Source of the DNA: Shigella phage phiSD1
Sequence record: PQ571306
DNA: 42,072 nucleotides
Reading direction: 5' to 3' (one strand)
Both the position numbers and the translations under genes were made by a program. Shown here in pieces: positions 23,302 to 24,029 of the stretch (position 1 is the first letter of the stretch; each line of letters opens with the position of its first letter). The notes under the pieces were generated by a model. The model saw nothing but the letters and a program-made list of their open reading frames with translations. It was not told the origin of the DNA and did no database searches.

Positions 23302-23595
23302 ATGAGCCTCGCAACTGACATCCTGAAACGAAGCGGCATTGCGCCGCTGTCACCGAGAGCGAACACCCGGATATACAAGCGCCGTCGTAATGCGCTGTAC
23401 CCTGAGATTCAGGCCAGACGCAAAGCGGTCCGCGCCTGTGGATTCCAGAACGGGAGGGCCGTGAATCTCGGTGAGTTCAAGACAAAGGAACGCGCGGCTA
23501 TCGCTAACCGGTTATTTAATTACTGGAAATCGCTGGGGTATGAGGATATCCCGACGAAACCGCAGAGACGACAATACATCTGGAGACATAAATGA
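23302..23595 (+). CDS. Hypothetical basic protein (97 aa), possible DNA-binding
   Basis: Arg/Lys-rich ORF. Confidence 0.4.
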   Translation: MSLATDILKRSGIAPLSPRANTRIYKRRRNALYPEIQARRKAVRACGFQNGRAVNLGEFKTKERAAIANRLFNYWKSLGYEDIPTKPQRRQYIWRHK

Positions 23596-24029
23596 CGACT
23601 ATCGCATTTGACGGAAAGACAATGGCCTGCGATACCCGAGTAGCAGGGGACCACATCTACAACACATACACGAAGATATACGAGAATGACTTTGCCGTTA
23701 TCGGGGTGGCTGGTGATGCAGGGGTTGGGGCTATGCTAATCCGTGATAATGGCGTACTTAACCCCAAATCATACGACTTCGATTTCGAAGCCTTGGTATT
23801 CATGAAAGACACAGAAAAGGTGTACAAAGTCTCGTTTTATAAATCATGGGATTGCGCGCTTAGTTCGGTTATTCCGATTGCGGACGGCTTTGCCGCCGTT
23901 GGTTCTGGCTCGCCATATGCGTTAGCGGCTATGTATTTAGGCCATACAGCGGCACGTTCGGTAACAGTAGCCGCGCAATTCGACACCAACACAGGCGGCA
24001 AGATTATTACCAAACAACTATTAGGATAA
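23592..24029 (+). CDS. HslV/proteasome-beta-like Ntn-hydrolase homolog (145 aa)
   Basis: N-terminus MTTIAFDGK (Thr next to initiator Met), GSGSPYALAA motif resembling HslV GSGGxYAxAA; by eye, no search. Confidence 0.55.
   Translation: MTTIAFDGKTMACDTRVAGDHIYNTYTKIYENDFAVIGVAGDAGVGAMLIRDNGVLNPKSYDFDFEALVFMKDTEKVYKVSFYKSWDCALSSVIPIADGFAAVGSGSPYALAAMYLGHTAARSVTVAAQFDTNTGGKIITKQLLG

Follow-up and report, generated by a model that had tools for sequence, protein, structure and literature searches.

The 42,072-nucleotide stretch of Shigella phage phiSD1 analysed here (sequence record PQ571306; hereafter the window) contains, at positions 23592-24029 of the plus strand including the stop codon, a gene for a 145-residue proteasome-like N-terminal nucleophile (Ntn) hydrolase, which is a member of the PPH family and shows no essential difference from it. 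Based on the alignments described below, the protein retains the complete set of proteasome-type catalytic residues and, by the same comparisons of sequence, is not an orthologue of HslV. We consider it probable that this protein is a Thr1 peptidase of the proteasome type, which would act autonomously and independently of ATP as the product of an accessory phage gene. The feature as such is already known: near-identical proteins in GenBank are annotated, and the family was defined by bioinformatic means in 2021, when PPH was one of the 22 new proteasome homologs reported by Fuchs, Alva and Lupas (2021).

Homology, fold and catalytic residues

A preliminary description of the window had taken this open reading frame (ORF) for a compact Ntn hydrolase resembling HslV or the proteasome beta subunits, on account of a Thr next to the initiator Met, a segment like the GSGGxYAxAA of HslV and a length about 30 residues below that of HslV, and each of these observations is borne out. 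The N-terminus of the 145-codon ORF, read from the sequence and from the ORF table, is exactly MTTIAFDGK; E. coli K-12 HslV starts (V)TTIVSV, with the Thr nucleophile likewise placed right after the initiator Met, and MTTI of the phage protein aligns with (M/V)TTI of HslV. Residues 104-117 read GSGSPYALAAMYLG, to be compared with GSGGPYAQAAARALL (GSGGPYAQAA) in the E. coli protein, the 176 codons of which make it 31 residues longer.

Searches with the single sequence remain below threshold and, taken alone, would mislead as an absence of any profile hit: the Pfam Proteasome model (PF00227) yields 11.5 bits against a gathering score of 22.4, the NCBIfam HslV equivalogs TIGR03692 and NF003964 yield 13.8 and 13.7 bits against cut-offs of 157.75 and 137, and phmmer against the PDB returns E >= 0.1. 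PHROG 1040, labelled 'peptidase HslV family', matches the protein with E=1.7e-34 and corresponds to the PPH family. An exhaustive HMMER search of 1.84 billion cluster representatives recovered 4,325 relatives with a threshold of E<=1e-3, of which 281 also pass E<=1e-10; almost all are 135-160 residues long and match from residue 1. A family profile built from 147 diverse sequences, which share 30-40% identity with the query and come from an alignment selected for Thr at position 2, matches end to end the proteasome subunits beta5/beta8 (E=1.6e-13), HslV (E=2.7e-13) and BPH (E=7e-12), and its hhalign comparison with E. coli HslV gives a probability of 97.4% with E=1.2e-11. By these profile comparisons the homology to the proteasome family is real and well beyond what chance would give, though it lies beyond the reach of the Pfam model.

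The fold agrees with this relationship. An AlphaFold single-chain model computed from a deep alignment (predicted local distance difference test, pLDDT, 94; predicted template modelling score, pTM, 0.89), which replaced a discarded model of pLDDT 41 from a shallow alignment of close relatives, displays the alpha-beta-beta-alpha Ntn sandwich of the proteasome beta type, as in the proteasome-like Ntn hydrolases of MEROPS T1 at superfamily level, and the top 50 Foldseek hits of this model in the PDB are all HslV, BPH or 20S beta subunits. The modelled elements comprise H1 (residues 45-50), a strand at 65-71, H3 (107-115), H4 (120-130) and the last core strand at 138-142, with no H2, and the chain ends three residues past that strand, at residue 145, with no C-terminal extension.

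The assignment to PPH was made by the structural and distributional features that Fuchs et al. (2021) describe for the family, for which their representative is WP_042125023.1 (KEGG OC.1434257). In that study PPH is a protein of about 140 residues from Caudovirales and prophage regions, placed in group I together with HslV, BPH, AAH and CPH and closest to BPH and HslV; H2 is missing from PPH and RPC only, and PPH is without S12/H5. Correspondingly, the window protein is a compact single domain of 145 residues (family median 147, interquartile range 142-154, n=145 full-length representatives), in which H1, H3 and H4 are present and H2 is absent according to both the model and hhalign. It is likewise without the C-terminal S12/H5, and it lacks the additional C-terminal domain that separates RPC, which has the same H2-less core, from PPH. 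Thr1, Asp17, Lys33 and the oxyanion Gly47 are kept, and its relatives occur in tailed phages and in prophages mainly of Proteobacteria (342 phage records, at least 469 IMG/VR stretches and 44 genome loci). The characterised BPH structures (PDB 5ovs, 5ovt and 5ovu) differ in having about 185-200 residues, full H1/H2, an elongated acidic pore loop, a tetradecameric assembly and a chromosomal, stress-linked gene, whereas PPH, a phage-borne protein, is without H2 and its loop is short. Compared with the 20S beta subunits (beta5/beta8), PPH is without a propeptide, H2, the C-terminal H5 and an alpha-ring partner.

As a separate observation, certain viral homologs of 260-280 residues (e.g. BFVD A0A1W6DWU9, 263 residues) continue past the PPH core for about 120 C-terminal residues, which fall at positions 156-277 of PHROG 1040. 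One of these extended proteins is 53% identical to the window protein across 131 aligned columns, and by their architecture they resemble the RPC family of Fuchs et al.

The predicted catalytic residues are all encoded on the plus strand. Thr2 (codon 23595-23597), the predicted N-terminal nucleophile that would become Thr1 once Met is removed, aligns with Thr1 of E. coli HslV (MTTI with MTTI). Its conservation among homologs had been set beforehand, along with a profile hit and an Ntn fold prediction, as a point at which the proposal could fail, and at none of the three does the proposal fail; Thr occupies position 2 in 142 of the 149 best representatives, an unselected set, and in 147/147 sequences of the Thr-selected alignment. 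The seven exceptions comprise two fragments, two N-terminally truncated calls, two proteins with short N-terminal extensions before TT[IV] and a single Ser (MSVIVWDG), a residue that has also been reported at the nucleophile position in some BPH subfamilies. Asp14 (23631-23633), equivalent to Asp17 of the proteasome and HslV, is Asp in 145 and Glu in two of the 147 aligned sequences. Lys28 (23673-23675), equivalent to Lys33 and aligned in beta5/beta8 and HslV, and Gly41 (23712-23714), which aligns to beta5/beta8 at the oxyanion-hole Gly47 of 20S beta, are both present in 147/147. Gly104-Ser105-Gly106 (23901-23909) aligns to the GSG of beta5 and HslV (Gly128-Ser129-Gly130), with both glycines again in 147/147 and position 105 occupied by Ser in 135 and Thr in 10. 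Finally, Asp131-Thr-Asn-Thr134 (23982-23993), within a D..TGG motif that aligns to RD(S/A)YSGG of beta5/beta8, corresponds to Asp166...Ser169 of 20S beta; Asp131 is found in 144 of the 147, and position 134 is Thr in 102, Ser in 29 and Cys in 16.

Some variation at the N-terminus is nevertheless seen among homologs. Two distant members, P0247 (169 residues) and P0237 (155 residues), have 10-15 extra residues before TT[IV] (MGVRTEARTTTTIAFDG and MASQGTQQHLRLRDAMTTIA); in P0237 the extension is probably a mis-called start, and in P0247, which has no internal Met, it could be a short propeptide, unusual for the PPH family. Closer to the window protein, 117 of 120 relatives start with MTTIAF, and two of the 120, P0081 and P0117, both from single short contigs, read MATIAF (with the nucleophile Thr changed to Ala) and MTAIAF; sequencing errors could account for them, or they may be inactive variants that occur in nature.

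The gene is under purifying selection: the pairwise ratio of nonsynonymous to synonymous substitution rates (dN/dS) among the Guernseyvirinae PPH genes has a median of 0.16 and a range of 0.06-0.25. Many phage proteins act as decoys, and a small protein without regulatory surfaces might be imagined as a mimic whose catalysis is of no importance and which poisons the HslV rings of the host or ties up one of its factors. We find this hardly credible, given that the catalytic positions are invariant or nearly so across relatives only 30-40% identical, that selection is purifying and that a decoy would have no need to retain Thr1, the Asp, the Lys and the Gly-Ser-Gly.

The H1/H2 region and the HslU-docking surface

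Residues 42-66 (23715-23789, plus strand) form, according to the model and hhalign, a short H1 (45-50) followed by a loop, which replaces the rest of the HslV H1, the entire H2 and the basic pore cluster. The hhalign deletions relative to E. coli HslV amount to 3 residues in H1, 11 and 5 across the H2/pore region and 9 in the H3-H4 loop, in addition to the C-terminal tail. The segment from Gly41 to the following strand spans 25 residues in the window protein, the minimum of the sample, compared with a family median of 32 and with 45 in E. coli HslV, and the net charge of the loop is -2, which is also the family median, compared with +2 for its HslV equivalent. Relative to other PPH members, the Guernseyvirinae proteins have the shortest H1/pore-loop in the sample and are without the Trp that is common in H1 elsewhere.

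According to the literature, the C-terminal tails of HslU enter inter-subunit pockets of HslV involving Phe54 and Phe57 (H1), Ala79/Lys80 (H2) and Gln114, and the pore cluster Arg86/Arg89/Lys90 is required for activity and is remodelled by HslU. In the hhalign alignment, which is of low confidence in this region, Phe54 and Phe57 correspond to Ala47 and Ile50 of the phage protein, most of H2 is deleted, and Arg86/Arg89/Lys90 correspond to Ser60/Phe63/Asp64. These replacements bear directly on the suggestion in the preliminary description that the protein could partner with host HslU. Under such a scheme PPH would replace or supplement host HslV on host HslU (ClpY), giving an ATP-dependent hybrid protease whose specificity the phage would direct, and the HslV-like N-terminus and GSG..YA.AA motif would be in keeping with it, as would the hosts, which are almost all Proteobacteria and generally have HslUV (E. 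coli K-12 has hslVU); the public label 'ATP-dependent protease' also points this way, though it is annotation rather than evidence. However, the helix that forms part of the tail pocket is largely deleted, neither the pocket residues nor the basic cluster are kept, and the loop is acidic family-wide. Furthermore, the protein scores far under the HslV equivalog cut-offs, there is no adjacent hslU, and the Asp166 position holds an Asp as in 20S beta rather than the Cys159 of E. coli HslV. BPH, which is similarly without HslU-interface residues, has been reported not to pull down HslU. We therefore regard a partnership with HslU as unlikely, the suggestion gaining no support from a protein in which H2 and the pocket residues are missing.

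The reduction of this layer has a counterpart in connectase, a proteasome homolog with a reduced H1/H2 layer that is a monomeric specific ligase, and a protein that has lost H2 may be unable to form classical rings. It could thus be supposed that Thr1 of PPH serves a non-proteolytic reaction, either as a connectase-like sequence-specific transpeptidase or ligase or as an amidase acting on a non-protein substrate. Yet connectase is a weak structural match to PPH, the S3/S4 helical insertion that confers its specificity is absent from PPH, and the full proteasome-type residue set is kept, including the equivalents of Asp166 and Ser169; we consequently give such a use of Thr1 little credence.

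The phage locus and its wider genomic contexts

Gene neighbourhoods were compared across 80 IMG/VR loci (with the ORF called in 79), representing 41 lineages by PPH identity, in which neighbours were grouped by clustering of all ORFs. No AAA+ unfoldase recurs beside PPH among these 41 viral lineages, and none is encoded in the window, the P-loop proteins of which are a primase-helicase (AAA_25), an SNF2 helicase and TerL only; for the further idea of the preliminary description, namely a partnership with an unfoldase other than HslU, no co-occurring gene is found. Fuchs et al. (2021) likewise found the gene context of PPH uninformative and no co-occurring AAA+ protein. As a different kind of partner, an ORF of about 95 residues that overlaps the PPH start in the window and in Klebsiella phage IME346 was considered and rejected, as it has no BLASTP similarity and no Pfam match and its family is not recurrent; the defence-system models of PADLOC match neither PPH nor this upstream neighbour.

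Across the 41 lineages, the recurrent neighbours are a portal protein (phrog_145 type in 11 lineages, another type in 4), TerL (10), a gp7-like head-morphogenesis protein (7), an endolysin (5), a VRR-NUC-like protein (5) and the adaptor Ad1, the major capsid protein and Neck1 (4 each). The position of the gene itself, and its probable timing, vary between phages: it lies directly 5' of the lysis cassette in Guernseyvirinae, immediately 5' of TerL in enterobacterial prophages, in the leftward early arm of Xanthomonas phage Xop411, close to a p7-type RNA-polymerase inhibitor, and in a three-gene opposite-strand island amid the tail genes of a Jedunavirus myovirus. The prevalence of portal, TerL and gp7-like neighbours raises the alternative of a late morphogenetic protease, which would remove the scaffold or trim the head or connector standing in for the missing prohead protease of phages whose head module is of the SPP1 type. 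In keeping with this, at 5517-6775 of locus L081 (IMG/VR UViG 2675903516_000007, a siphovirus or prophage) PPH is placed between Ad1 and Hc1 with spacers of 1-2 nucleotides in a tight structural operon; the head module of L081 is of the type found in the window (portal phrog_145, gp7-like phrog_241, scaffold phrog_206), and both encode a scaffold and neither a canonical prohead protease. Against it, Xop411 has its PPH in the early arm and encodes a ClpP-family prohead protease of its own, adjoining the capsid gene, the Jedunavirus gene is in an island amid tail genes, the chromosomal genes described below have no phage genes near them, and in the window PPH is 4 kb from TerS, with the lysis cassette and several small ORFs in between. 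Moreover, heads of the SPP1 and P22 types shed their scaffold without proteolysis. A role in morphogenesis is, in our judgement, very unlikely.

The 44 PPH loci found in genomes are mostly from Proteobacteria, and nearly all PPH-bearing genomes are those of Proteobacteria or their phages. About 20 species of Acetobacteraceae (Roseomonas, Falsiroseomonas and relatives; loci L088-L112, e.g. L103, 5001-5450, of Falsiroseomonas stagni) have a chromosomal PPH, 36-41% identical, in the gene order RuvX, pyrB, PPH, (TctC), pyrC-like amidohydrolase, PlsY, DprA, that is, among housekeeping genes, and no phage genes are found near it on these large contigs. Since Fuchs et al. (2021) named Pseudoalteromonas and Mesorhizobium alone as non-prophage contexts of PPH, this looks like a further domesticated lineage. 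Such variability of position fits a mobile accessory gene, the product of which would work without phage structural partners. Apart from these chromosomal genes, three contigs assigned to a Bacillota metagenome-assembled genome (L085), Taishania pollutisoli of the Bacteroidota (L086) and Novosphingobium silvae (L087) encode PPH proteins 62-80% identical to that of the window; most likely these contigs come from Guernseyvirinae phages and reached the assemblies by contamination or mis-binning.

The closest relatives of the window are Guernseyvirinae: at the DNA level the region shares 96.6% identity with Escherichia phage SZH-1 and 80-87% with many genomes of Kagunavirus, and by tblastn the protein is found in 342 phage records, at least 286 of them at 60% identity or more, mainly from Salmonella Jerseyvirus and Escherichia Kagunavirus. 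Synteny is identical in the two genera, running PPH, holin, holin, endolysin, and existing records label the protein 'ATP-dependent protease', 'peptidase HslV family', 'NTN-hydrolase superfamily protein' or 'hypothetical protein'. The impression that this is not a standard siphovirus gene thus needs correction, as it is conserved, syntenic and annotated in both genera and has belonged to a named family since 2021. In a side comparison, the PPH-lysis region (23000-25200) reaches 96.6% DNA identity with SZH-1 alone, with the other genomes listed at 87% or less, while the major capsid protein (35411-36379) is 98-99% identical by tblastn to those of Escherichia phages BUCT823, UTI-CM001 and L AB-2017; from these contrasting similarities the window phage looks mosaic.

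Within the window, a GGAG Shine-Dalgarno sequence (23582-23585, plus strand) lies 6 nucleotides 5' of the PPH ATG, which shares the ATGA at 23592-23595 with the TGA stop of the 97-codon upstream ORF (23302-23595), an overlap that suggests translational coupling. As had been noted previously, a holin gene follows just downstream (24089-24397; phrog_2359, E=1.4e-31), and the order beyond PPH is holin, second holin and endolysin, as annotated in relatives. Consensus scans of the window place the last plus-strand terminator-like hairpin 5' of PPH at 22292-22313 and promoter-like sites at 25125-25275, 3' of the endolysin; because these scans detect no promoter- or terminator-like site between PPH and the lysis cassette, PPH is probably co-transcribed with the lysis genes. 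A general role for PPH in lysis, considered because of the adjoining holin, was nonetheless rejected: phages of the Jersey and K1G types are already equipped with holins, an endolysin and overlapped two-component spanins, and the PPH genes of other lineages do not adjoin lysis genes.

Two sets of predicted RNA-level features surround the gene. Strong terminator-like hairpins on the plus strand at 20432-20458, 21203-21223 and 22292-22313, with stems of 9-11 bp followed by T-runs, are found among the small rightward ORFs 5' of PPH, in a region (20300-25400) that is enriched in terminator-like sites (11 observed against 4.8 +/- 2.1 in shuffles); the three suggest several short transcription units or attenuation points. 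In the 59-nucleotide spacer between PPH and the holin, a 9-bp hairpin at 24044-24083 (ATCCTCCAG/CTGGAGGAT, arms 24044-24052 and 24075-24083; minimum free energy -18.1 kcal/mol, z-score -2.3) sequesters the GGAGG Shine-Dalgarno sequence (24077-24081) of the holin, which starts with TTG at 24089. This hairpin is unchanged in eight Kagunavirus-type loci and missing from Jerseyvirus, and so offers no evidence from covariation; by analogy with the sdi structure of lambda S, it could throttle translation of the holin.

Predicted mode of action and meaning for the family

From the homology, fold, residue conservation, purifying selection, variable context and lack of a co-occurring unfoldase observed above, we infer the activity, assembly, HslU independence and biological role of PPH along the following lines. 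The protein would be translated from the ATG at 23592, probably coupled to the upstream ORF, from a transcript shared with the holin and endolysin genes. Host methionine aminopeptidase would then remove Met to leave Thr as residue 1, no propeptide being present; such removal of Met exposing Thr1 is established for HslV. The same processing has been reported for BPH made in E. coli. Thr1 would serve as the nucleophile in a predicted triad with Lys28 (Lys33) and Asp14 (Asp17), next to an oxyanion hole at Gly41 (Gly47) and with Ser105 (Ser129), Asp131 (Asp166) and Thr134 (Ser169) as putative supporting residues.

The helices H3 and H4, which make the ring-ring contacts in proteasomes, are kept and highly conserved, which suggests that such contacts are retained, while the H1/H2 layer, on which the alpha ring of 20S proteasomes or the HslU of HslVU docks, appears to be cut to a short H1 and an acidic loop. 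Because the docking layer is reduced while H3/H4 are kept, PPH would most likely be a self-assembling, ATP-independent peptidase that acts on peptides or on unfolded or disordered proteins with no dedicated unfoldase, as has been proposed for BPH; an ATP-independent action on peptides and unfolded proteins has also been proposed for other orphan proteasome homologs. A conserved yet positionally mobile gene of this kind would be an accessory one rather than a component of capsid maturation, and its candidate substrates would be proteins of the host, defence factors or peptides that are to be recycled.

Several considerations weigh against this proposal. Searches of the literature for experimental work on PPH or on HslV-like proteins of phages returned mentions in genome announcements and no biochemistry; phage genome papers list 'HslV' genes and remark on the absence of HslU. 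BPH, the closest characterised relative without an unfoldase, bound epoxomicin, yet its protease activity was undetectable in vitro, so that peptidase activity of PPH is not guaranteed. The active-site geometry of PPH is drawn from alignments and the model is a single chain; HslV for its part is a dodecamer of two hexameric rings. The hhalign alignment of the H1/H2 region is of low confidence because that element is gone from PPH. Moreover, the hosts are nearly all Proteobacteria that generally have HslU, and host range is thus no argument against the use of HslU; and in several lineages PPH is found in a late or structural operon of phages without a canonical prohead protease.

A bolder version of the proposal would make PPH a viral 'mini-proteasome' of unprecedented quaternary structure, either a ring lacking H2 or an open assembly whose entrance is acidic, that degrades specific host proteins during infection, such as a defence factor or a disordered regulator, and does so alone or by capturing a host housekeeping unfoldase or chaperone via an interface not of the HslV type. 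We rate this as a speculative possibility with the odds clearly against it, and prefer the simpler Thr1 peptidase acting independently of ATP and of any dedicated unfoldase.

Because the protein scores below the HslV equivalog cut-offs and the HslU-docking layer is missing, the label 'ATP-dependent protease / HslV' is over-specific, and 'ATP-dependent' in particular is unsupported; 'proteasome-like Ntn hydrolase, PPH family' would be accurate. PPH is the sole primarily viral branch of the proteasome family, and it is far larger than first reported, with 4,325 clusters at 50% identity as against 324 nr90 sequences in 2021. A first functional study of a PPH could conveniently draw on the genetics of the Guernseyvirinae, in which the locus of the gene is fixed and the hosts are Salmonella and E. 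coli of the K-12 type.

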